This document shows positions 21,517-32,000 of a stretch of 32,000 nucleotides of DNA, piece after piece. A model generated the notes under the pieces. That model was not told the DNA's origin. It did not search any database and worked only from the letters and a program-made list of their open reading frames with translations. The stretch is taken from contig NC_004460.2 of assembly GCF_000039765.1 (NCBI RefSeq), forward strand, positions 1,110,001 through 1,142,000. Direction: 5' to 3'. The position numbers and the translations under genes are program-made. Source of the DNA: Vibrio vulnificus CMCP6 (GTDB lineage: Bacteria; Pseudomonadota; Gammaproteobacteria; Enterobacterales; Vibrionaceae). Numbering within the stretch: position 1 is the first letter of the stretch; every line of letters begins with the position of its first letter.

Positions 21517-22116
21517 CTAAACCGGCTGACTCAGCATAAACACCACCACTAACGCGAGGCTGCTGCCCATGCATCGGTTTACCCACACCACCTTTTGTGG
21601 TGACTGGATAAAGCGGTTCAATACGGTGCCAAAATAGGCCCACACAAACATCCCTAACACACCGGTTCCTACCATCACGCTGATAATGATCACCACCTGA
21701 GTCAGGTAATCATTGTTTGGCGAGATAAATTGAGAGAACACCGTCAGCGATGCGACCCAACTTTTCGGATTCAAAATTTGCACCCACACTCCAGACAAAA
21801 AACCAGACTTTTTCGCATTCGAATCATTATCGATCTCCATATTGGCAATCGACCATGCCAGATACAGCAAATACGCCGCACCAACCCACTTTAGTGCCGT
21901 GTACAAATCTGGGTAAAGGGTAAACAAACTGACGAGCCCCACACTGGCACCAACCAACATGATGATCACCCCGACAGCATTGCCCAGCACAAACGGCACG
22001 GTCGCAGAAAATCCGTATCGGCTTGAAATGCCTAACAGCGCCACATTGCCCGCTCCCGGCGTCAATGAAATAGAAACGGCAAACAACAAAAACGCCGCCA
22101 ACAACTGAGCACTCAT
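21517..22116 (-). CDS. LysE/RhtB-family amino-acid exporter
   Basis: N-terminus MSAQLLAAFLLFAVSISLTPGAGN (the LysE signature 'PGP/A.N'), 6 TM helices and about 200 aa. The start at 22116 has a GGAGAG SD. Confidence 0.88.
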   Translation of the reverse strand: MSAQLLAAFLLFAVSISLTPGAGNVALLGISSRYGFSATVPFVLGNAVGVIIMLVGASVGLVSLFTLYPDLYTALKWVGAAYLLYLAWSIANMEIDNDSNAKKSGFLSGVWVQILNPKSWVASLTVFSQFISPNNDYLTQVVIIISVMVGTGVLGMFVWAYFGTVLNRFIQSPQKVVWVNRCMGSSLALVVVFMLSQPV

Positions 22117-22237
22117 GCACTCTCTCCCCAAAAAGTCGTGATTTAATATGAAAACAGTCTAACGATTTGGCTAGAAATAAAATTGCTATCTGCGCTACGA
22201 TAAACGCCAATTTGAGCAGACTATTTCCAAAAGTATT

Positions 22238-22720
22238 ATGAAAAAGAAAGAATCCACCAACTTCGAATTGGACAATACCGATTTCGCCATTCTTGATCAT
22301 ATTCAGAAAGATGGACGCATAAGCAATTCCAAACTCGCCGAAACCCTCAACTTGAGCGAGACACCCTGTTGGCGACGTTGGAAAAAAATGGAAGAGGAAG
22401 GCTACATTGAGGGCTACGCCGCGAAACTCAATCGCAAGAAACTCGGCTTTCAAGTTTCGGGGTTTACGCTGGTCACTCTAGGCAGCCATGAAGTGGAAAA
22501 CACCACACCTTTTGAAGACTTCGTCGCGGAAACCGACTGGATCTTAATGTGTCACTGCATTGCAGGCAGCGCAGATTACATGGTGCAAGTGGTAGCAAGA
22601 GACTTAGACGAATACTTTGACCGCATCAGTGCCATTCGCCGTGTAAAAGGCATCAGCGCCATTCAATCCAACGTCTCCGTTAAGGAAATCAAGAGCACCT
22701 TCCAGTTGCCATTGGAGTGA
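22238..22720 (+). CDS. Lrp/AsnC-family transcriptional regulator
   Basis: LDNTDFAILDHIQKDGRISNSKLAETLNLSETPCWRRWKKMEEEGYI (HTH_AsnC) plus a RAM domain. Divergent from the LysE exporter, which is the classical pairing. Confidence 0.9.
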   Translation: MKKKESTNFELDNTDFAILDHIQKDGRISNSKLAETLNLSETPCWRRWKKMEEEGYIEGYAAKLNRKKLGFQVSGFTLVTLGSHEVENTTPFEDFVAETDWILMCHCIAGSADYMVQVVARDLDEYFDRISAIRRVKGISAIQSNVSVKEIKSTFQLPLE

Positions 22721-22743: not shown

Positions 22744-23559
22744 CTATCTCCGTCGGCCTGTCACGCGAAACTGCTGTGGGGTAACATCAAAATAGGCTTT
22801 AAATGCCTTGATGTAGGATGAGTCGTTCTGATAGCCCACTTGATCGGCAATGCTTTGAATAGAGAGTTCTTCATCTAACAAAGAGAGCGAATAGATCAGC
22901 CGAATTTGCTGTCGCCACAACTGAAACGATGTGTTGAACTCTTTGGCAAACAAGCGCGACAAAGTGCGCTCCGACGCGCCGACTTTCTCACCCCACTGTT
23001 TGAGCGACCAATCCAATGCTGGCTTGTCGGTCAACGCTTCAAATATCAGCTTTAAGCGCCGATCTTCTGGCAGCAGCAACTGAAACGTCTGCACGTTGTC
23101 TTTCATGATTTGATCATGCAGCACCGCCAGCAAGCGCGACACTTCCCCTTCACTCACAACCCCTTCGCACTGGCGGCGAATTTCCTGTAGCAGCTCATTT
23201 AAAAAAGGCGTGAGCGTAATGGTTCGCACTTGATGCTTATACTCGGTTCCAAAAGTCGGATTGAGGTAGATACCAACAAACGTGGTATGACTTAGCGCGA
23301 TAGATTCATGTTGAATGCCCGCAGGCACAAACAGCGCAGAGGTATGGGGCACAAGGTGCTGGTAGTGATCGGTTTGGGTTTGCAGAAGCCCTTTGATCGG
23401 GAAAATGACTTGATGCCAAGTATGTTGGTGCATCGCATCTATGTAACCTTTGGGCATGTCTATGGTTTTAACCAGCGCAGGTGAGTGAGGATTCGCGGCC
23501 ATCATCTCATTAGACGTCATCACACCGGAGTGAGAATCGATTTGGCGGGTTGGCATCAT
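22744..23559 (-). CDS. AraC-family transcriptional regulator (cupin N-domain)
   Basis: C-terminal HTH_18 (...WSLKQWGEKVGASERTLSRLFAKEF...GYQNDSSYIKAFKAYFDVTPQQF). AAGGA SD. Confidence 0.88.
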   Translation of the reverse strand: MMPTRQIDSHSGVMTSNEMMAANPHSPALVKTIDMPKGYIDAMHQHTWHQVIFPIKGLLQTQTDHYQHLVPHTSALFVPAGIQHESIALSHTTFVGIYLNPTFGTEYKHQVRTITLTPFLNELLQEIRRQCEGVVSEGEVSRLLAVLHDQIMKDNVQTFQLLLPEDRRLKLIFEALTDKPALDWSLKQWGEKVGASERTLSRLFAKEFNTSFQLWRQQIRLIYSLSLLDEELSIQSIADQVGYQNDSSYIKAFKAYFDVTPQQFRVTGRRR

Positions 23560-23643
23560 TAACTGTCCTTACATCCCTACTCTGACACAAGTTCACTAGG
23601 CTATCATGCTCGGCAAAGTGAATGAAGCCGTGAGGTGCGACGT

Positions 23644-23886
23644 ATGCGATATCAAGTTGAAATATCCAAAGAAAACCAGCTCTTATTCAAAGTCGATATT
23701 GATAACATCAACCCAGCCAAGTGCGAAACATCGCTCGAAACCGTATTGGCTAAGTTTCCAAAAACGGAAGGGTATCAACGCCATGTGTTGGTTTCAGATA
23801 GCGAAACACGCTACTTAAAAAGCACAGAAAAGCGCATTGAAGTACTGGCAGCGATTCCGGTATTTGCCTCATTGGGCGAGCGTTAA
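23644..23886 (+). CDS. Small hypothetical protein (80 aa) upstream of the MOSC gene
   Basis: ORF with TGAGG 8 nt before ATG 23644. No recognisable motif. Confidence 0.45.
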   Translation: MRYQVEISKENQLLFKVDIDNINPAKCETSLETVLAKFPKTEGYQRHVLVSDSETRYLKSTEKRIEVLAAIPVFASLGER

Positions 23887-23931
23887 CCTCGGGTTTGTTG
23901 CCCAATCCGTTTCACGCAATAAGGAAAGAAT

Positions 23932-24621
23932 ATGAAGAAGTTAGGCGTCGTTAACAGCGTATTAGCAGGAAAAACCGTTGCCTTTGCGCATGGTACGAAA
24001 AGTGCGATTAACAAACAGGTTATCTCACAGCGTCTGCACGCAACTGAACTGGGTTTCACCAATGACGAGCAAGGCGATCCGCGCTTTCATGGCGGCATTC
24101 AAAAAGCCCTTCATATTTACCCAAGCGAGCACTACCCAGTTTGGCAGCAAGAACTGGGTAACAAAGCAATTTTCCAATCCGCTGGCGCGTTTGGTGAGAA
24201 CCTCAGTTCCAGCGGTGTGACGGAAGCGTTCATTTGTTTGAAAGATAAGATCCGCATCGGCACAACCTTGCTAGAAGTGTCGCAAGGGCGCATGCCTTGT
24301 TGGAAACTCAACGTACGCTTTGAGCAAAACGACATGGCAAGAAGGCTACAAGACACGCTTCGAACGGGTTGGTATTTCCGAGTGTTAGAAGAAGGCGATA
24401 TCGGCGCAGGTGACGAGATTATTCTGTGTGAAAGACCTTATCCACACTGGTCCCTAGCTCGCATCATGGGCGCGGTGTTTACTGGCTGCCTGGATAAAGC
24501 TGAGCTTAGCCAACTGGCAGAACTGCCATTGGTTGAATCTTGGGGCAAACTTGTCGAACGCCGCCTAGAGACCGGCGAAGTCGAAGATTGGAAAATGCGC
24601 TTAGTTGGCCCAACAGCCTAG
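23932..24621 (+). CDS. MOSC-domain protein (YiiM-like)
   Basis: ...DEQGDPRFHGG...ALHIYPSEHY...GAFGENL...GRMPCWKLN... is typical of YiiM-type MOSC proteins with the 3-alpha C-domain. AAGGAAAG SD. Confidence 0.87.
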   Translation: MKKLGVVNSVLAGKTVAFAHGTKSAINKQVISQRLHATELGFTNDEQGDPRFHGGIQKALHIYPSEHYPVWQQELGNKAIFQSAGAFGENLSSSGVTEAFICLKDKIRIGTTLLEVSQGRMPCWKLNVRFEQNDMARRLQDTLRTGWYFRVLEEGDIGAGDEIILCERPYPHWSLARIMGAVFTGCLDKAELSQLAELPLVESWGKLVERRLETGEVEDWKMRLVGPTA

Positions 24622-24732
24622 CCAATTAGATAAACAGCAGGATGAAAGCTCGAAGCAAGCGAGCCTTCATTGATGAGGGGCCAAGGGAGAGAGACTAAAA
24701 TGTTTTTGGATAAATCTGAGCTAGCCTCACCA

Positions 24733-24770
24733 GCTAGCTCGAAGTTGGACAGAAACGCTTTAGGGTAGTG
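24733..24770 (+). repeat. Islet-boundary direct repeat, copy A
   Basis: GCTAGCTCGAAGTTGGACAGAAACGCTTTAGGGTAGTG matches copy C (28118-28155) at 28 of 38 positions without gaps (hand alignment). Confidence 0.6.
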
Positions 24771-24878
24771 GCACTAAGTCGCTCTTGTCCCTGATTGAGC
24801 TGAAAATCCAAGTGATATCAAGCTCATCTTGAACAATTCAAAATAATACACTCCCGATCTGCGATTAGAAGCAGCGTG

Positions 24879-26024
24879 TCAGCAGGTTAGCTCGCCAGAC
24901 TGCCTGAATCGTTCGAAACGATCCTTTACCAAGTTGCGGTAATCCGGATACTCACTGAAGTAGCGCACAATTTCCTCTGCTTCTCTTCCTGAGTGGCACA
25001 GTTCACGCTGTACATAGGTAAATATGTTTATGAACCTTACAAGGCTGATTTCATCTACAAGAGAATCAGCTTCAGAAAATGGAACATACAAGATAGCGAT
25101 ATTACTTTTAAACTCATCTGCTGATAATAAATCTCCTTCCTTAAGGCGCTTAAATCTTGCTTTTATGGCATTGGTATCAGGGTCAACCATCCAAAGCTTG
25201 AGTTCCTTCTCGTCTAATAAAGCCTCCTGCTGATAACGACAGTAGCTTTCATCTGTACGCTGAGCAGCCAGAATATCTCTGTATAACTGTATCCACGTTA
25301 TACGATCCTTTTGGTACTTATGCTTGGCCCAGTGATTTTTTAAGCGTTTAAGGAACACCTCCATAGAAGGAACAACCAAAGTTTTACCCTGTTTTTCAGC
25401 TAGCTTTGGCAGATAATTACTCAATGTAGGAGAAGGCTGATGCGATAGCTCCATCATTAAGTCAAACAAAGCAGCCCAGTACATCACAAGTTTGATTACA
25501 TATTCAGTTACCTGTTCATTTGGCGGCTCTGGGAGTTGCAAACTATCTATAAGCAGCCAGTCTCTTACAAATTTTTGAGTTACCTCGTGGTTGTTTTTTT
25601 CATCGCTACCTTTGAGACACAAATACTCGATCTCGCAATGAGCCAGAAGGAAACTAAAAAACTCATCTAGTTCAAACCTGCCGTATTCATGATGAGCCTT
25701 TCTGAATGATGCGACCGCTACCTTCATCCCGAACCACGCACCTAAGTGCCTAAGTTCATAACCCTCGACTTCACTCAAATAACTGTCGACGTCAAATCCC
25801 TTTAGACGACATTCTGCCATCAGTTCCCGCATGAGTTTCTCTAAATCTCCGTTACGATAGTCCCTGAACATCTGCTGATCATGAGTAATGTTGGGATCTT
25901 TTTTCAGCATTCTCATTAGTTTGACGAATGCGTCGGATCCTGACTTTATATCTTTAGTTGATACCCGAAAGAATCCGGGAAGACCGTTAAATAGAATTCC
26001 TCGGTCAGAAAGTTCGGTAAACAT
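24879..26024 (-). CDS. Hypothetical protein, 381 aa, predicted soluble and mostly helical, no recognisable domain
   Basis: A long clean ORF in an AT-rich islet. I could find no P-loop, TM segment, HTH or nuclease motif. The SD is poor (AGGGA 14 nt upstream). Confidence 0.7.
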   Translation of the reverse strand: MFTELSDRGILFNGLPGFFRVSTKDIKSGSDAFVKLMRMLKKDPNITHDQQMFRDYRNGDLEKLMRELMAECRLKGFDVDSYLSEVEGYELRHLGAWFGMKVAVASFRKAHHEYGRFELDEFFSFLLAHCEIEYLCLKGSDEKNNHEVTQKFVRDWLLIDSLQLPEPPNEQVTEYVIKLVMYWAALFDLMMELSHQPSPTLSNYLPKLAEKQGKTLVVPSMEVFLKRLKNHWAKHKYQKDRITWIQLYRDILAAQRTDESYCRYQQEALLDEKELKLWMVDPDTNAIKARFKRLKEGDLLSADEFKSNIAILYVPFSEADSLVDEISLVRFINIFTYVQRELCHSGREAEEIVRYFSEYPDYRNLVKDRFERFRQSGELTC

Positions 26025-26144
26025 ATTTCAGTGAAATGTCCCTTTTTACATGTCTGTACTGAGTGAGAATACCGCCTGAACAAGCGAAATAGAACCTTGC
26101 TTATCATTTTCTCTTAACAAAAACAGTAACATGAGGAAGGTATA

Positions 26145-26897
26145 ATGACGGAAAACATACTAAAAACCATACAAAGTGGCGCACAAGCACTTTCATTACT
26201 AAGTAAGGTACGTTGTGTAGAAAGCTATTCGTTTTCATCTGGAGAAAAAGCGAAAAACTTATATTCATGGCCTACAGAATTTGAAAAAGATAATATAGTT
26301 TCCAGTGTACTCGAACAAAATGGAAAAACTTTGGGGAACTACTGTAGAGTTAAATCCTATCCAGTCTCTTACACCCAGTATAAAAACTATCTACCTGTTT
26401 ATGCACCGGAAATTATCAGTATTCGAGTTTCACGCTGTCTACTGGATGTATATAAACTTCTGTTCAAAATAAACACTATCACAAAAATTACGGCGGTTTG
26501 GGACAGTGTGAAGTATCCAATGCGAACATACCCTAAATCTATGTCTGACATGGATGGTTTAAAAGAGTTTGCCGGATACCGAGATGCGATGCTTGTTTTC
26601 GATTTCGGTAACGAAAAATACAGTACAAAGCTTCCAGCATTTGCATACCGAGCATTATTGGTAGCATCAGAGGTATTTAAAACCTTTTCTATTTCTTATG
26701 ACGACAGAAGTCATTTCATTGGTAACGTCACAGATAAGGCTGGGAGAAGTAAAAGATACCTCGTACACTACGGTAATAAGGGATACCTGTTTGAAGCAAT
26801 TAATGAAACCTCTGATTCAGTCGATAAACTGGTTGGCTGTGACAAATGGGTCGAAGTTCTGAAAAAAGACGGCTGGAAGTTTTACAACGATAAGTAA
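26145..26897 (+). CDS. Hypothetical protein, 250 aa, no recognisable domain
   Basis: Clean ORF with a strong SD (GAGGAAGG 4 nt before ATG). Hand-counted samples give about 38% GC. Divergent from the 381 aa gene. Confidence 0.72.
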   Translation: MTENILKTIQSGAQALSLLSKVRCVESYSFSSGEKAKNLYSWPTEFEKDNIVSSVLEQNGKTLGNYCRVKSYPVSYTQYKNYLPVYAPEIISIRVSRCLLDVYKLLFKINTITKITAVWDSVKYPMRTYPKSMSDMDGLKEFAGYRDAMLVFDFGNEKYSTKLPAFAYRALLVASEVFKTFSISYDDRSHFIGNVTDKAGRSKRYLVHYGNKGYLFEAINETSDSVDKLVGCDKWVEVLKKDGWKFYNDK

Positions 26898-27295
26898 TCT
26901 GGCACTGCAATGCAGCAGCCTTAATAGTTTGAGGTATTAGCATTCACTTCAAATCGAAATGGCAGTTGCAGTGACCCTTTGCAATAGGCAAGGCAATTAG
27001 ATTGCTAACACTAAATTGCTTCTGCCCCCAAGCTAGGCATCTGAGACGCCTCTGGACAAATTCGTGTTACCAATGGCGTCAGTCGTGACTCTGCACGCAT
27101 GACCCAAAGTATGGAAAAACTCTATATACATGGCCAGTTTTAGTTAATCACTACAGTAGGTTAAAAAATAGAAATAAGACGGCCTATTCGAACTAGTTGG
27201 CTAAATTAGTAAGACCCCACTTTCATAGACACTATGCTGGTTAGAAGAAGTAGGTCAAACCACCTCACTGTTCTTTGTGAGGTTGAACGTACTGG

Positions 27296-27316
27296 CAAGG
27301 AATGGGGCAGTAATAT
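27296..27316 (+). repeat. Islet-internal direct repeat, copy B
   Basis: CAAGGAATGGGGCAGTAATAT shares an identical 12-mer GGAATGGGGCAG (27299-27310) with copy C (28126-28137), and 17 of 21 positions overall. Confidence 0.5.
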
Positions 27317-27360
27317 GTTACCGATTAACTGTTCACGATTTTCATTCCGAGCAGAGCTTA

Positions 27361-27753
27361 TTAAGCTCGCCCAAAAGCTTTGAGAAAGTTCTTGGGGTGT
27401 TGGTGAAACCTTACATGCTCAATGTGATTAACCCTCCTCTTTCCCTTAAAGGGTGGAGCAATGTATCCCCAATTAGCGCATCTTGAGAAGTATATTACGT
27501 AGTCAATCTGTGCATCCTGCCATTGGTCGGTAACAACGGTGTTTTCATCGAAGCACTCTACCGACTTTACTTGAATGCGGTAGAATTTGCTCCCGTCAGA
27601 AATAAGTACATCTGTCTTCATACCATGATCGATCATGGGCATAAAGACTTCCCAGCCGTCTTGTAATAGCCAGCTTGCTAATAGGGTTTCGTAAGAGACA
27701 CTTTTATAGTGCTTTTTTGCTTCTGAAGAAGAGTGAAGTGTTTTTAAAGGCAT
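27361..27753 (-). CDS. Small PD-(D/E)xK-superfamily nuclease-like protein (130 aa)
   Basis: Pattern ...SYETLLASWLLQDGWEVFMPMIDHGMKTDVLISDGSKFYRIQVKS... = E...(P)-D...D-x(12)-Q-V-K, as in small Hjc-type or intron-associated PD-(D/E)xK endonucleases. AGGA SD. Confidence 0.6.
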   Translation of the reverse strand: MPLKTLHSSSEAKKHYKSVSYETLLASWLLQDGWEVFMPMIDHGMKTDVLISDGSKFYRIQVKSVECFDENTVVTDQWQDAQIDYVIYFSRCANWGYIAPPFKGKRRVNHIEHVRFHQHPKNFLKAFGRA

Positions 27754-28117
27754 ATTAATATCCTAATTACATGCTGGTTGTCTTTTTAGCTCTAGACGTC
27801 CAGCGAAGCTTCCCTTAGGGATAACTTCAATTAGGATTCACAATGGCTCTTTAGAGGTCTCATCAACTAGCAACAGGAGCTACCCCTAGTCTTCTACCTA
27901 CTTGGTTACCTTGACTATTAATACTAGTGTTCACGTTCTGTGAGTGAATCGGTTGGTTTTTAAACACGATATACAAAGATCGTAAATTCGTCAATTCAAC
28001 TGATGGCAAGAAACCTTGATTAGACATGATTAAGAACAAGAACCTCGTTCAGTAGGCACTACACTAACTAGAAAAAGTAGGGAGCAAACTCATGCGTCAA
28101 GTATGACAGAATAGCGT

Positions 28118-28155
28118 GCTAGCTTGGAATGGGGCAGAAACACTCTAGTGTACTC
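28118..28155 (+). repeat. Islet-boundary direct repeat, copy C
   Basis: GCTAGCTTGGAATGGGGCAGAAACACTCTAGTGTACTC. See copies A and B. Confidence 0.6.
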
Positions 28156-28324
28156 ACCCAAAACCACTAACAACGCCATTCTCCACAGATCCAAGACACC
28201 GCAATCACTTGCGCTAAAGTTCTATCCTTTGAGCTTACTAACATAACCAACAATAAATAATCGCTACACTCTGCCCCGTTTCATCTTCGTTTGTTTTACC
28301 TTGTTATCCTCTTGGAGAAATCGA

Positions 28325-29335
28325 GTGGCAACCATGAAAGACGTCGCGGACTTAGCCGGTGTATCCACGGCAACCGTCTCGCGTGTTATCAATCGCACCA
28401 GTTATGTTGAGCCTGTGACGCAAGAACGCGTTGAACGCGCCATTAAAGCGCTCAACTACCGCCGAGATGCGCGCGCAACGGCACTGGCGAATCGCAGCAA
28501 TAACACGCTCGGTTTATTAACTGGTAATTTAGCCGATCCCTTCTTCGCTCTCATCGCCAAAAGCGTTGAAGAAGTTGCTCGTGCCAATGGTTGCCAGTTG
28601 GTCGTAGTCAGTGGCGGACACAACGCGCAACGAGAAAAAGAAGGGATCGACTTTCTCATTAGCCAAGGTTGTGAGGCAATGGTCGTGCACTCAAAGATGC
28701 TCGATGACACCACGCTGATGCAATACGCTGCGCAGCTTCCAGCGATGGTATTGCTCAACCGCACCATTGCACAAATTTCCAATCGATCAGTTTGGGTAGA
28801 CAACCGAGCTGGGGCACGAAAATCAGTTGAGTATTTGATTGAGCAAGGTCATCGCAAGATCGCGTGCATCACCAGTGACTTGCCGATTGAAGATCGCACA
28901 GATCGATTGGCTGGCTATCGAGATGCCATGAATGCCGCCAACTTAGCCATCCCAACAGGCTGGGTGATTAACCAAAACTTCAGCGAATCTGGCGGTGAAG
29001 AAGCGGGACGACAGCTTATCCAAGCTTGCCCGGGCGTCACTGCGGTGGTGACGTTTAATGATGTAATGGCAGCTGGTTTAATGGCGAGTTTGCATGAACA
29101 AGGATTGTCGGTTCCCGAGGATATTTCCGTGGTCGGCTTTGATGATGTGTTGCTTGCACGCTACCTCTATCCACGGTTGAGCACCATGCATAACCCGATT
29201 GATGAAATGTCGACTTATGCGGCGAAACTGGCGCTAAATTTGCGTAAAGATGGCTATTCTCCGCCGAGTTCGCATCAGTTCGAAGCGAGTTTAGTTTGTC
29301 GCCAAACGGTCAAAGCAATACAAAAGAACGGCTAA
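28325..29335 (+). CDS. LacI-family transcriptional regulator
   Basis: (V)ATMKDVADLAGVSTATVSRVINR is the canonical LacI HTH, followed by a periplasmic-binding-protein-like core. GTG 28325 has GGAGA 6 nt upstream. ATG 28334 is the alternative start. Confidence 0.9.
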   Translation: MATMKDVADLAGVSTATVSRVINRTSYVEPVTQERVERAIKALNYRRDARATALANRSNNTLGLLTGNLADPFFALIAKSVEEVARANGCQLVVVSGGHNAQREKEGIDFLISQGCEAMVVHSKMLDDTTLMQYAAQLPAMVLLNRTIAQISNRSVWVDNRAGARKSVEYLIEQGHRKIACITSDLPIEDRTDRLAGYRDAMNAANLAIPTGWVINQNFSESGGEEAGRQLIQACPGVTAVVTFNDVMAAGLMASLHEQGLSVPEDISVVGFDDVLLARYLYPRLSTMHNPIDEMSTYAAKLALNLRKDGYSPPSSHQFEASLVCRQTVKAIQKNG

Positions 29336-29365
29336 AATTGTGATGAATTTGGCATTCGCGCACCC

Positions 29366-29383
29366 CATGTAAGCGCTTACATG
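29366..29383. promoter_or_regulatory. Perfect 18 bp palindrome; LacI-family operator candidate upstream of the NhaC-family gene
   Basis: CATGTAAGC|GCTTACATG has a central CG and fits the generic LacI/GalR operator shape TGnAAnCGnTTnCA. It lies 90 nt upstream of the nhaC-like ATG. Confidence 0.7.
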
Positions 29384-29472
29384 AAAACAACACACCGCTC
29401 TCATTTTGCCTATTACACGACCGTTACTATCCACTGCGAACAAACCCTACATCGATCCTGAGGATAAATAAC

Positions 29473-30948
29473 ATGACAAATTCTAAGCCTCTACCGTCGT
29501 TCGGATTAGCACTCGCCCCTATTGCGGTGATGTTTGCGCTTCTGGCTGTCGGATACGGAATACTCGGACTTCGCATTGAAGTTCTGTTGCTGATCTCAGC
29601 TGCCTTTACTGGTCTTATCGCGTGGAAGATCGGTTACAACTGGGATGACATCATCAACGCCATCGTAGAAAAACTGGCCAAAGCGATGCCCGTGATTCTG
29701 ATTTTGGTCTCGGTTGGCGGTTTAATTGCCAGCTGGATGGTCAGCGGCACAATCCCTTACATGGTGTACTGGGGACTTAAAGTCATCAGCCCTGAATACA
29801 TTCTTATTGCCACTTTTTTTGTAACCAGTGTCGTTTCCGTTTGTACCGGTACGTCTTGGGGCTCAGCGGGCACCGTGGGTGTTGCACTCATGGGTGTTGC
29901 AGCGGGTCTTGACGTCTCGCTCGCTGCGGCGGCCGGTGCGGTTGTGTCTGGCGCATATTTTGGTGACAAAATCTCACCACTATCCGATTCAACTAACTTT
30001 GCACCTGTGGTTTCTGGCACCACTTTGTACGAACATATTCAACACATGCTGTACACCACGCTACCGGGATTTGTCATTGCGTCTGTGGTGTTCTTTTTCG
30101 CAGGTCAAAGCGCGGATATCACCAATATTCATGAGCCAGAAAAAGTGGTTCAAATCATCTCGGGTCTAGACAATCTCTACAACTTCAACATTCTACTTCT
30201 GATTCCACCAGTGATGATCTTATGGGGCGCGTTAACTAAGAAGCCCGTTCTGCCATTGATGCTTGGCGCATCGGCTATCGCAATTGGTTTGGGTATGGTG
30301 TTTCAAGACTTCACTCTTAACCAAGGCTTCCAAGCTTACGTAGACGGCTTCAATCTAGCCATGTTTGAGGCAAACGGTCACAGCGTAAATGGTTTGGTGC
30401 CAGATATCGCCAAACTGCTTAACCGCGGCGGTCTGTTCTCGATGATGAGCACGATTCTATTGGTATTCTGTGCCTTTGCCTTCGCTGGCATCCTGAGCCT
30501 AACTGGCGCTCTAAACGTAGTGCTAGGCAAATTCCTCCATGCGATTCACACCACAGGTCAGCTGATTGCTTCAACGGTTGTGGCAACCATCACGGTGGTT
30601 TTCACCACTTCTGACGGCAAGCTAGCACTGTTGATTCCAGGTGAGTTGTTCCAAAACGCTTACCGCAAAATGGGCTTAGATACCAAAAACCTGTCTCGAA
30701 CCATCGAAGACGCCGGCACCATTATTGAGCCATTGGTTCCGTGGACGGCCGCAGGTATCTACATGGCAGGTACGCTAGGTGTGGCGACATTGGATTACCT
30801 ACCATGGGCGATTCAATGTTACACCGGCGTGATCTTCGCTTTGATTTATGGCTTCACTGGCTTTGGTATCGCAAAAGCAAAGCCACAGCAAAACCAACAA
30901 CAGATTGCTGACGAGCATTCAAATACACCAGCAGTAGAAACAAAATAA
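29473..30948 (+). CDS. NhaC-family (Na+/H+ antiporter-type) transporter
   Basis: About 12 TM helices. The family-typical segment is ...SVCTGTSWGSAGTVGVALMG...YFGDKISPLSDSTN... GAGGA SD. Confidence 0.88.
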   Translation: MTNSKPLPSFGLALAPIAVMFALLAVGYGILGLRIEVLLLISAAFTGLIAWKIGYNWDDIINAIVEKLAKAMPVILILVSVGGLIASWMVSGTIPYMVYWGLKVISPEYILIATFFVTSVVSVCTGTSWGSAGTVGVALMGVAAGLDVSLAAAAGAVVSGAYFGDKISPLSDSTNFAPVVSGTTLYEHIQHMLYTTLPGFVIASVVFFFAGQSADITNIHEPEKVVQIISGLDNLYNFNILLLIPPVMILWGALTKKPVLPLMLGASAIAIGLGMVFQDFTLNQGFQAYVDGFNLAMFEANGHSVNGLVPDIAKLLNRGGLFSMMSTILLVFCAFAFAGILSLTGALNVVLGKFLHAIHTTGQLIASTVVATITVVFTTSDGKLALLIPGELFQNAYRKMGLDTKNLSRTIEDAGTIIEPLVPWTAAGIYMAGTLGVATLDYLPWAIQCYTGVIFALIYGFTGFGIAKAKPQQNQQQIADEHSNTPAVETK

Positions 30949-30960
30949 GGTAAATCATTG

Positions 30961-32000
30961 ATGAACGCTTTCGACCAAATTCTGAACCGCAAGGAAAGTG
31001 GCTCTTTAAAGTGGGACTTTATACAACAAAAGCTGGGATTGACTGGGACGGATTTACTTCCGATGTGGGTATCCGATTACGATTTTAAAGCGCCGCAAGT
31101 GGTGTTAGACGCACTACAACAGCGAGTTGAGCATGGGATCTTTGGTTACGCGGAACGCGATGATGCGTACTACCAAGCGACTATCGACTGGTATCGAAAT
31201 CAGCATGATACCTGTGTTGAGCGTGAGTGGATCACCACAGTACATGGCGTACTTCCTGGGCTCGCAATGGCATTGCAAATGCTCACCGAAACAGGCGATG
31301 GCATTGTGATGCAAAGTCCGGGTTACGGTTCTTTCCGTAAGATCATTGAATTCAACGATCGCGTTGTGGTTGAGAACCCACTGACGGAAACCGAAGGCGA
31401 CTATCAACTCGACTTTGATCATCTCGAAACCTGCTTTGCTAATGGCGCAAAAGCAATGATCTTCTGCAATCCACATAACCCAACGGGGCGAGTTTGGTCT
31501 GAAAGCGAAATCACAAAGGTTGCCGAACTGTGTGAGCAATACCAAGTCTGGCTGCTGAGTGATGAAATATGGGGCGATTTGGTGGTTGGCGATGCGCCAT
31601 ACTACTCTGCTTTGCGTCTACCACAAGCGCTCACTCAACGCCTGATTGTGGCAACGGCAGCCAGTAAGACGTTTGGTTTGTCGTCACTGCGAATCTCTAA
31701 CTTTATGATTCCAGATGAATCACTTCGAGCGCAGTTTACTCGCAGGCTAGATGCGCATGGCATGGACGTGTTCAACAGTCTCTCAATGAGTGCCGCGACA
31801 ATTGCTTATCAAGAGTGCTCTGATTGGTTAGTGGACTTAAAAGACTACCTGCGCGCTAACATCGCCAAACTTGAGCGGTTTGTACAAACGGAACTGCCAG
31901 AGGTGAAGTTTGTTGCGCCACAAGCCGGCTATTTGGCTTGGTTAGACTGTCGTGTACTTAACTTAACTGACACTGAGATAGAACAAAAGTTTGTCTCAGC
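30961..32000 (+). CDS. MalY/PatB-type PLP-dependent C-S lyase (cystathionine beta-lyase/aminotransferase class I-II); 3' end off-window
   Basis: My own translation from ATG 30961 is open to the window end: MNAFDQILNRKESGSLKWDF...MWVSDYDFKAP...FCNPHNPTGRVW...AASKTFGLSSLR (PLP Lys). It is absent from the ORF track because it has no stop. Confidence 0.87.
   Translation, partial: MNAFDQILNRKESGSLKWDFIQQKLGLTGTDLLPMWVSDYDFKAPQVVLDALQQRVEHGIFGYAERDDAYYQATIDWYRNQHDTCVEREWITTVHGVLPGLAMALQMLTETGDGIVMQSPGYGSFRKIIEFNDRVVVENPLTETEGDYQLDFDHLETCFANGAKAMIFCNPHNPTGRVWSESEITKVAELCEQYQVWLLSDEIWGDLVVGDAPYYSALRLPQALTQRLIVATAASKTFGLSSLRISNFMIPDESLRAQFTRRLDAHGMDVFNSLSMSAATIAYQECSDWLVDLKDYLRANIAKLERFVQTELPEVKFVAPQAGYLAWLDCRVLNLTDTEIEQKFVS

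Follow-up and report, generated by a model that had tools for sequence, protein, structure and literature searches.

The AT-rich islet between a YiiM-like MOSC gene and a GalR/GalS-like LacI-family gene on chromosome II of Vibrio vulnificus CMCP6 carries three open reading frames (ORFs), here called A, B and C, and comparison with related loci reveals that it consists of two separately acquired mobile units, the divergent gene pair A-B and a short segment around C, rather than one three-gene system. The islet occupies intergenic DNA within a 32,000-nt window, the whole stretch that was analysed and to which all unprefixed coordinates refer. It is foreign DNA, and very probably a composite lodged in a strain-variable defence hotspot. 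Whether A-B is itself a two-gene module acting against phages or other mobile elements is evenly poised on the evidence of its neighbourhoods, and the reading we favour as a whole, with somewhat more than even confidence, is of two independently acquired units in a defence hotspot, of which A-B is likely such a module, not previously described.

Results

Two units make up the islet

Comparison with related loci by blastn (loci are cited below by their L numbers) divides the islet into two homology blocks. The first, 24744–27058, spans A and B with the flanking DNA 3' of each. Six V. parahaemolyticus loci match it at 92% identity, with homology from 24774 onwards, and one V. cholerae locus matches it at 98%, from 24744 onwards; these copies lie at unrelated chromosomal positions. 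The second, 27303–28133, is the C unit, which is 97% identical to V. parahaemolyticus loci L027–L029, where C stands beside a 1256-aa nSTAND NTPase with neither A nor B. Between the two blocks lies a stretch of ancestral intergenic DNA displaced from its place upstream of the LacI-family gene (Table 1), matching a segment that in V. vulnificus L017 directly adjoins the core flank; its position between the blocks indicates two separate insertions. Across the related loci, A-B occurs without C in more than 12 contexts, and C occurs without A-B in at least nine. An earlier note on this DNA had proposed a single cargo module with a PD-(D/E)XK nuclease as effector, a claim that is unsupported on two counts: DNA homology splits A-B from C, and each occurs without the other.

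Alternative cargo occupies the same site in other strains

Alleles of the site were sampled via contigs that encode an identical LacI-family protein. A-B-C is the allele in most of the sampled V. vulnificus contigs. At the same junction (window 24650–28178), L021 (4186–8611) and L025 carry a 770-aa protein with AAA_15/21 and OLD-like TOPRIM domains and a 708-aa UvrD helicase (Pfam), which PADLOC identifies as GajA (5.4e-203) and GajB (1.2e-252), an adjacent pair that qualifies as the Gabija system. A third allele (L017 539–8746) combines an IS3-family transposase with ATP-grasp, acyl-CoA dehydrogenase, EPSP-synthase-like and hexapeptide-transferase genes, a cargo that looks biosynthetic rather than defensive, and a fourth variant (L009 8790–8855) departs from the window right after 24720, its contig stopping 66 nt later.

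In blastn comparisons, core homology stops on the left at 24650 or 24720 (L009 is identical up to 24720, and the Gabija-allele strains are 96% identical up to 24650) and restarts on the right at 28178 or 28192 for the Gabija-allele and IS3-allele strains. Identical flanks thus hold different cargo in different V. vulnificus strains, one cargo being a known defence system, as the earlier note's suggestion of horizontal acquisition and strain variability, and its proposed comparison of the flanks, had led one to expect. Because A-B-C is not conserved at this locus in all relatives, the inference of horizontal acquisition at a hotspot is supported.

The composition of the islet differs from that of its surroundings: GC content is 40.8% for 24721–28160 compared with 47.7% for 1–24620 and 49.1% for 28325–32000, the flanks ranging over 48–51%. 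The hand-counted samples on which the note had relied are exact (38.3% for both 26161–26220 and 26401–26460, 51.7% for 24361–24420), its three ORFs of 381, 250 and 130 aa are where it placed them, and its figure of more than 1.2 kb free of ORFs of at least 60 aa compares with the 1411 nt of 24622–28324 that lie outside the three. It had also reported no integrase or transposase, and none is present among the genes called within 10 kb on either side of the islet. No tRNA was found in the islet region, and Rfam gave no match at E ≤ 1 in 23500–29500. The exact protein sequence of A is present in 216 index blocks, and exact protein matches place the window on V. vulnificus chromosome II (AAO07964.1; CP126699.1).

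A and B form a linked pair of uncharacterized families

A and B are neighbouring, divergent and 119–120 nt apart in every relative of at least 64% identity, a set that comprises the window, L010–L016, L030, L032, L033 and L040–L044 and that spans V. vulnificus, six V. parahaemolyticus and six V. cholerae contexts, Vibrio sp. B1Z05, V. floridensis and a metagenomic contig. The sequence between them is highly conserved among V. vulnificus, V. parahaemolyticus, V. cholerae and Vibrio sp. B1Z05. Together the two genes make up a cassette of about 2.2–2.3 kb (about 24792–27028). Ratios of non-synonymous to synonymous substitution rates (dN/dS) are low, at 0.11–0.29 for A (one near-identical pair gives 0.57) and 0.11–0.27 for B, so both are functional genes; with values of 0.08–0.12 for C, all three are under purifying selection.

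The A family is small: an exhaustive profile search recovers only 55 clusters at 50% identity, all of about 370 aa. The best conserved polar residues of A are D49, R54, R57, E133, K288, R293, Q339 and R369. Invariant residues of B include R23, C24, E26, K37, W42, P43, R97, D120, R127, K162, D187 and D197, and its structure is modelled with confidence by AlphaFold2 (AF2; predicted local distance difference test (pLDDT) 90.3, predicted template-modelling score 0.88). Both families are uncharacterized; neither is represented in Pfam (2025), NCBIfam (June 2026) or PADLOC (2023, PADLOC-DB 2.0). None of 40 relatives of A or 14 relatives of B matches Pfam, nor does any match PADLOC at E ≤ 0.01; against PADLOC-DB 2.0, A, B and C themselves give no match at E ≤ 1, and profile searches with the three return no meaningful match among PDB sequences.

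Three more specific ideas about A and B were rejected. The order of secondary-structure elements in B had suggested a cryptic PD-(D/E)XK nuclease, which is unsupported, hhalign detecting no relation of B to C (nor of A to B). An ITHD motif in A had suggested an HD-hydrolase, rejected because H48 is kept in only 20 of 40 relatives. As for an origin on phages or plasmids, A-B has no DNA or protein match in INPHARED and no near-identical DNA in PLSDB.

Known defence genes lie within 10 kb of A-B in most of the contexts examined (by plain count, more than 12 distinct contexts have such neighbours). These neighbours include type I restriction-modification (RM) systems, AbiJ, Abi_2, PvuRts1I/SRA, TerB with BrxC/D-like proteins and a helicase, SocA_Panacea, TIR, HNH, UvrD and AAA_13/15. 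More distant relatives of A (35–37% identity; Pseudoalteromonas rubra, Enterovibrio norvegicus) adjoin a type I RM S subunit and an AAA_21 ATPase, or a KAP NTPase. The slot beyond B varies by species: it holds the C unit in V. vulnificus, a 350-aa protein in V. parahaemolyticus, a 275-aa HNH protein in Vibrio sp. B1Z05 (L032 7093–7920) and nothing in V. cholerae. The 350-aa protein (L010–L015 7703–8755) has no Pfam, PADLOC or NCBIfam match and forms a cassette of its own, bounded by the junction box described below.

Two variants of B were also seen. In the most divergent A-B locus (L030 3903–4662; A 64% identical), a frameshift splits B into ORFs of 134 and 117 aa, so that this copy is a pseudogene unless the long-read assembly is at fault; neighbours in L030 include TIR, uracil-DNA glycosylase, resolvase and DUF932 genes. 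On a contig of 1658 nt, a 283-aa protein (P0016) aligns with 76% of B at 92% identity and also matches Zn_Tnp_IS91 (PF14319), which probably represents an IS91 insertion into B. The search for related loci with a 12-sequence alignment of A returned genomes of three species only.

C belongs to the backbone of integrase-borne defence islands

The C unit, 0.83 kb long, is bracketed by a 26-nt direct repeat (27288–27313 and 28115–28140), and C itself is convergent with B at a distance of 463 nt. The unit is 86% identical to a backbone found in six further Vibrio contexts (L045–L050), where C follows a 430-aa P4-like integrase at a fixed distance within 2.6 kb of conserved sequence (L048 3949–6527). 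Downstream of this backbone the cargo is interchangeable, consisting of SIR2-HerA (PADLOC 3e-167 and 6e-152), SLATT with a reverse transcriptase, a UvrA-like ABC protein with ThiF, a deoxynucleoside kinase with radical SAM and ankyrin proteins, or an exonuclease, while the right flank, which holds acetyltransferase genes, is fixed; these loci are a family of integrative defence islands. A relative of C in Methylomonas also lies inside an integrase-bearing island, and the window and L027 keep the same order of C followed by cargo, with no integrase. Its recurrence with integrases and interchangeable cargo makes C part of the backbone of integrase-borne defence islands, not a dedicated effector of A-B. 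Candidate roles for it are island maintenance, homing-like spread and stand-alone restriction.

The earlier note had read a PD-(D/E)XK-type pattern in C. All 24 aligned relatives match PDDEXK_5 (PF11645) at E ≤ 0.01 (best 1.6e-8), and relatives at 50–68% identity carry precomputed matches to it, whereas the window protein scores 22.9 bits, under the Pfam gathering threshold of 26.1; in C and its 24 relatives the match covers the N-terminal half of the profile. The invariant residues are E22, D42, H43, D48, Q61 and K63. E22, D48 and K63 fall in the expected order, and the (D/E) position of the motif is an invariant glutamine, Q61. The family comprises more than 93 clusters in Gammaproteobacteria (Vibrio, Shewanella, Pseudoalteromonas, Agarivorans, Methylomonas and others), nearly all of 130–131 aa.

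The group I intron homing endonuclease I-Ssp6803I is a member of PDDEXK_5, and NCBI names relatives of C 'group I intron-associated PD-(D/E)XK endonuclease'. C resembles this family in E22, D48 and Q61-x-K63 and differs from it in its sub-threshold score and in having Q rather than D/E at the third motif position; the profile search of PDB sequences with C did not recover I-Ssp6803I. Unlike a homing endonuclease within a group I intron, C is free-standing next to integrases or island edges in all contexts seen, and no group I intron was detected with Rfam.

In V. parahaemolyticus and V. vulnificus, C is in many cases annotated as a 93-aa protein (P0147, P0149–P0157) that would be without E22; these annotations may be alternative start calls or N-terminal truncations. 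Some 330–380 nt upstream of C (window 27754–28133; L048 5671–6000) have no ORF call and are about 86% conserved between species, about equal to the C unit overall. This region holds a 58-aa ORF (27863–28039, minus strand), and relatives in Methylomonas have a divergent ORF of 43 aa in the same place.

A junction box marks the cassette boundaries

The edges of both units carry copies of a short sequence, the junction box, with a core of approximately (T)GGGRCARAARCNNYTTAG in a site of 20–35 nt, often preceded by GCCTAGCTTGG. The degenerate direct repeats that the earlier note had seen at the two edges of the islet are real and contain it, the copies E1 (24733–24767) and E4 (28117–28151) sharing 27 of 35 positions. 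A hidden Markov model made mainly from sites outside this window finds four matches (nhmmer; 24747 (+), 12.7 bits; 24772 (−), 15.8; 27009 (−), 14.4; 28130 (+), 12.0), all of them in the islet, at its left edge, at the A-B/C boundary and at its right edge, where 0.01 would be expected per 32 kb. No box occurs in the core flanks or in the Gabija allele. The divergent stretch of the L009 variant contains GGCAGAAATGAATAG, which is box-like.

In related islands the box marks nearly every cassette boundary. Of the 68 boxes in 20 related or metagenomic loci, 65 fall outside ORFs of at least 100 aa, although only 20% of the sequence is outside them, and within an array the boxes are co-oriented regardless of the strand of the genes. 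The crossover point can be read directly from one cassette: homology between the window and the V. parahaemolyticus A-B loci stops at 27028, which is the end of the box, and the cassette of the 350-aa gene inserted there, which is missing from the window, carries its own box at its far end, so that the breakpoint falls at the exact box end (...CTTCTGYCCC/CAAGCTAGGC..., the slash marking the break). Box-delimited cassettes sometimes carry genes unrelated to defence, such as CHASE-GGDEF and tubulin-like genes.

At the start of several arrays (L010, L012, L041 and L074) stand a type I RM operon and an Xer-like tyrosine recombinase of 198 aa that consists of the catalytic domain only, placed between hsdM of the operon on one side and the first box-delimited cassette on the other. 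The protein falls far under the cut-off of every NCBIfam recombinase model that it matches (60 compared with 220 bits for XerA/integron-integrase). Four single box matches in viral contigs were judged to be at about chance level, and L083, considered as an excised circular cassette, was rejected, as it has no terminal overlap. In the literature searched we found no match for protein accessions or for the box sequences, and no description of the box; in these sources the architecture of co-oriented, box-delimited cassettes appears to be undescribed.

Table 1. Features of the islet and of related box arrays (window coordinates unless a locus is named)
Feature	Position	Strand	Description
Left ancestral intergenic DNA	24622–24720	.	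follows the MOSC/YiiM-like gene; includes terminator-like hairpin 24642–24670
Left junction site	24733–24791	.	extended copy E1 (24733–24767, +) and inverted arm (24772–24791, −)
Gene A	24879–26024	−	381 aa, predicted all-alpha, uncharacterized family
A-B control region	26025–26144	.	120 nt, divergent; Shine-Dalgarno GAGGAAGG before B
Gene B	26145–26897	+	250 aa, alpha/beta globular, small uncharacterized family
Box E2 with conserved trailer CAAGCTAGGCATCTGAGACGCCTCTGGACAA	27007–27066 (E2 27007–27040)	−	right end of the A-B cassette
Displaced ancestral intergenic DNA	27156–27226	.	from upstream of the LacI-family gene; 80% identity to L017 8815–8884
Partial fifth box copy	27303 (repeat 27288–27313)		start of the C unit
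C unit	27303–28133	−	gene C, about 380 nt on its 5' side and about 58 nt on its 3' side
Gene C	27361–27753	−	130 aa, small PD-(D/E)XK-fold protein (PDDEXK_5-like)
Right box E4	28117–28151	+	direct repeat of E1, abuts the core flank; exact TGGGGCAGAAAC match
Right ancestral intergenic DNA	28178–28324	.	5' of the LacI-family (GalR/GalS-like) gene; 97.6–99.2% identity to strains with other cargo
Boxes in L010	5497, 7593, 8997, 11212, 14012/14058, 15971	++++++
Boxes in L040	5019, 6650, 8864, 12335, 14389, 16407	−−−−−
Boxes in L074			6 copies
198-aa tyrosine recombinase	L010 17657–18253; L012 14571–15167; L041 1631–2227; L074 117–713		catalytic domain only, Xer-like

Neighbouring polymorphisms

The strains differ again 2 kb left of the islet, where the LysE-like and AsnC-type genes of the window (21517–22720) are replaced in some V. 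vulnificus strains by a gene for a 330-aa zinc-type alcohol dehydrogenase-like protein (ADH_N; L001 13372–14364). Further left, a 599-aa gene with no Pfam match (L001 17938–19737) is missing in L003.

Discussion

A model of the islet and the points that weigh on it

In the account that we favour, B would be the enzymatic effector of the first unit and A its sensor or regulator, both presumably expressed from the conserved control region of 120 nt that they share, whereas the C segment was acquired separately and is not the effector of A-B. Cassette insertions and deletions break precisely at the box, which suggests that the islet was assembled by site-specific recombination there; replacement of the whole site, for example by Gabija, would instead proceed by homologous recombination in the core flanks.

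Several observations weigh against this account. Neighbourhood association is the only functional evidence, no homology tying A or B to defence, and the two proteins match no model in Pfam, NCBIfam, PADLOC or PHROG. A shows no recognizable catalytic or nucleotide-binding motif, and its AF2 model, built from a 10-sequence alignment, is unusable (pLDDT 38); B, for all the confidence of its own model, has no Foldseek match (best E 0.33 in PDB and 0.31 in BFVD, template-modelling score ≤ 0.2). Known multi-gene defence operons are not usually transcribed divergently. The distant relatives of A occur without B, so A-B may not be an obligate system, and A-B-C is the commonest arrangement among the sampled V. 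vulnificus contigs and is therefore not a rare accessory. With regard to assembly, hairpin folding of the box is no better than that of shuffled sequences at seven of eight sites (z −0.04 to −1.3) and the window encodes no recombinase, so the recombination mechanism is conjecture.

Alternative explanations for A-B

A and B could be accessory cargo that plays no part in genetic conflict, whether a regulatory or metabolic pair or an effector–immunity pair that serves competition between bacteria, hitch-hiking in variable islands. Neither protein has a defence-related domain, some box-delimited cassettes carry CHASE-GGDEF and tubulin-like genes, and one V. vulnificus allele of this very site holds biosynthetic genes. 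We nevertheless consider this unlikely: most independent contexts have a known defence gene no more than 10 kb away, Gabija is an alternative allele at this site, searches of phages and of PLSDB plasmids did not turn up the pair, and no signal peptide or secretion-associated neighbour was noted.

It is less probable still that A-B is an addiction or stabilization pair resembling a toxin–antitoxin (TA) system, or an abortive-infection pair, selected mainly for keeping its cassette in the array and not for blocking phage. The tight linkage of the two genes, their conserved shared control region and their retention in most sampled V. vulnificus strains count in favour of such a pair, as does its presence in cassette arrays next to small paired ORFs and SocA_Panacea, SHOCT and AbiE-like genes. 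Classical type II TA pairs, however, are small, co-directional and overlapping, a description that A-B does not fit: its proteins are large (381 and 250 aa) and its genes divergent and 120 nt apart. Moreover, neither protein resembles a toxin or antitoxin family in Pfam or PADLOC, and distant homologues of A stand alone.

That A, B and C form one defence or addiction system, with the 130-aa PD-(D/E)XK protein C as nuclease effector of A and B, is very improbable, and is largely refuted by patterns of co-occurrence. The three genes are neighbours in most sampled V. vulnificus strains, C has its PD-(D/E)XK-type pattern, and the HNH gene of B1Z05 or the 350-aa gene of V. parahaemolyticus after B makes a variable third gene conceivable; but C lies on a separate homology block with its own repeats, is convergent with B at 463 nt, is present in none of the other A-B loci (six of V. 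parahaemolyticus, six of V. cholerae, B1Z05, V. floridensis and L030), and occurs apart from A-B beside integrases with many unrelated cargos.

Hardly credible, finally, is the idea that A, B or both are accessory recombination proteins that move box-delimited cassettes: although A-B is the one cassette found at many array positions and in many species, has well-preserved boxes on both sides wherever it occurs, together with an additional inverted arm next to A, and most arrays have no identifiable recombinase, many box arrays are without A-B (L027, L065, L074, L080, L082 and L092), A and B resemble no recombinase, transposase or DNA-binding family, and the small Xer-like recombinase is the better candidate.

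Relation to known systems

Much of the site, taken as two units in a defence hotspot, belongs to known kinds, namely defence hotspots and integrase-borne islands, and the presence of Gabija is ordinary in this setting; Gabija, a GajA ATPase/TOPRIM nuclease with a GajB UvrD-like helicase, is an alternative allele at the same junction and has no sequence relation to A, B or C. Fixed core flanks, changing cargo and a low-GC insert are features shared with defence hotspots, in which alternative anti-phage systems take up a single place between conserved genes, as in the E. coli defence-island repertoire (PMC10121019). Also in common with hotspots, A-B elsewhere sits among RM, Abi, TIR and helicase/ATPase systems; the differences are that the cargo here has no detectable homology to catalogued systems and that the islet is a mosaic of two units with a junction box. 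The backbone of integrase and C, with its interchangeable cargo and fixed right flank, recalls what is generally known of P4-like satellite hotspots and Vibrio phage-defence elements. GMT islands are alike in the same respects (bioRxiv 10.1101/2023.03.28.534373); no GMT trio was seen here, and A-B could not be matched to the GAPS1, 2, 4 or 6 accessions of that paper.

The closest architectural parallel to the box arrays is the integron. An attC site is a folded site of 57–141 nt with an R''/R' consensus (RYYYAAC/GTTRRRY). In both cases one short site follows each cassette, the sites are co-oriented whatever the strand of the genes, insertions and deletions break at the end of the site, and a tyrosine recombinase gene stands at one end of some arrays; intergenic, co-oriented sites and a breakpoint at the box end amount to an integron-like array in architecture only. 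The differences are considerable. The box is unlike attC or dif: at 20–35 nt it shows no significant hairpin folding, in contrast to attC, and the R''/R' consensus was not seen by eye in its sequences. There is no IntI-type integrase here, and none in the window; only the 198-aa Xer-like domain occurs, in some related arrays. Box cassettes are 1.3–3.5 kb long and often hold several genes, on either strand.

These parallels allow a further, tentative possibility, to which we give limited credence: that the box is the recombination site of an undescribed integron-like cassette system of marine Gammaproteobacteria. Its cassettes would comprise several genes, often related to defence, each with one site of 20–35 nt and stacked in one orientation, some arrays lying by a type I RM operon and the 198-aa Xer-like recombinase, and they, A-B included, would move from array to array and from species to species by way of this site. 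A small outpost of this system without a recombinase is then what the V. vulnificus islet would represent, and A-B would be one of its most mobile cargoes and a new two-gene defence system with a new fold in B.

Implications

One lesson of this locus is cautionary: adjacency in an AT-rich islet does not by itself make a nuclease the effector of the uncharacterized genes beside it. If A-B does protect against phage, a two-gene system without recognizable domains would join the defence catalogue of a clinically relevant Vibrio, and B would add to it a protein whose structure, although modelled with confidence, matches nothing in the structure libraries searched. The junction box, for its part, marks the breakpoints of cassettes common to V. 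vulnificus, V. parahaemolyticus, V. cholerae and marine metagenomes; it would provide a testable mechanism for the assembly of defence islands, cassette by cassette, outside integrons, and a sequence handle with which further uncharacterized cassettes could be mined.

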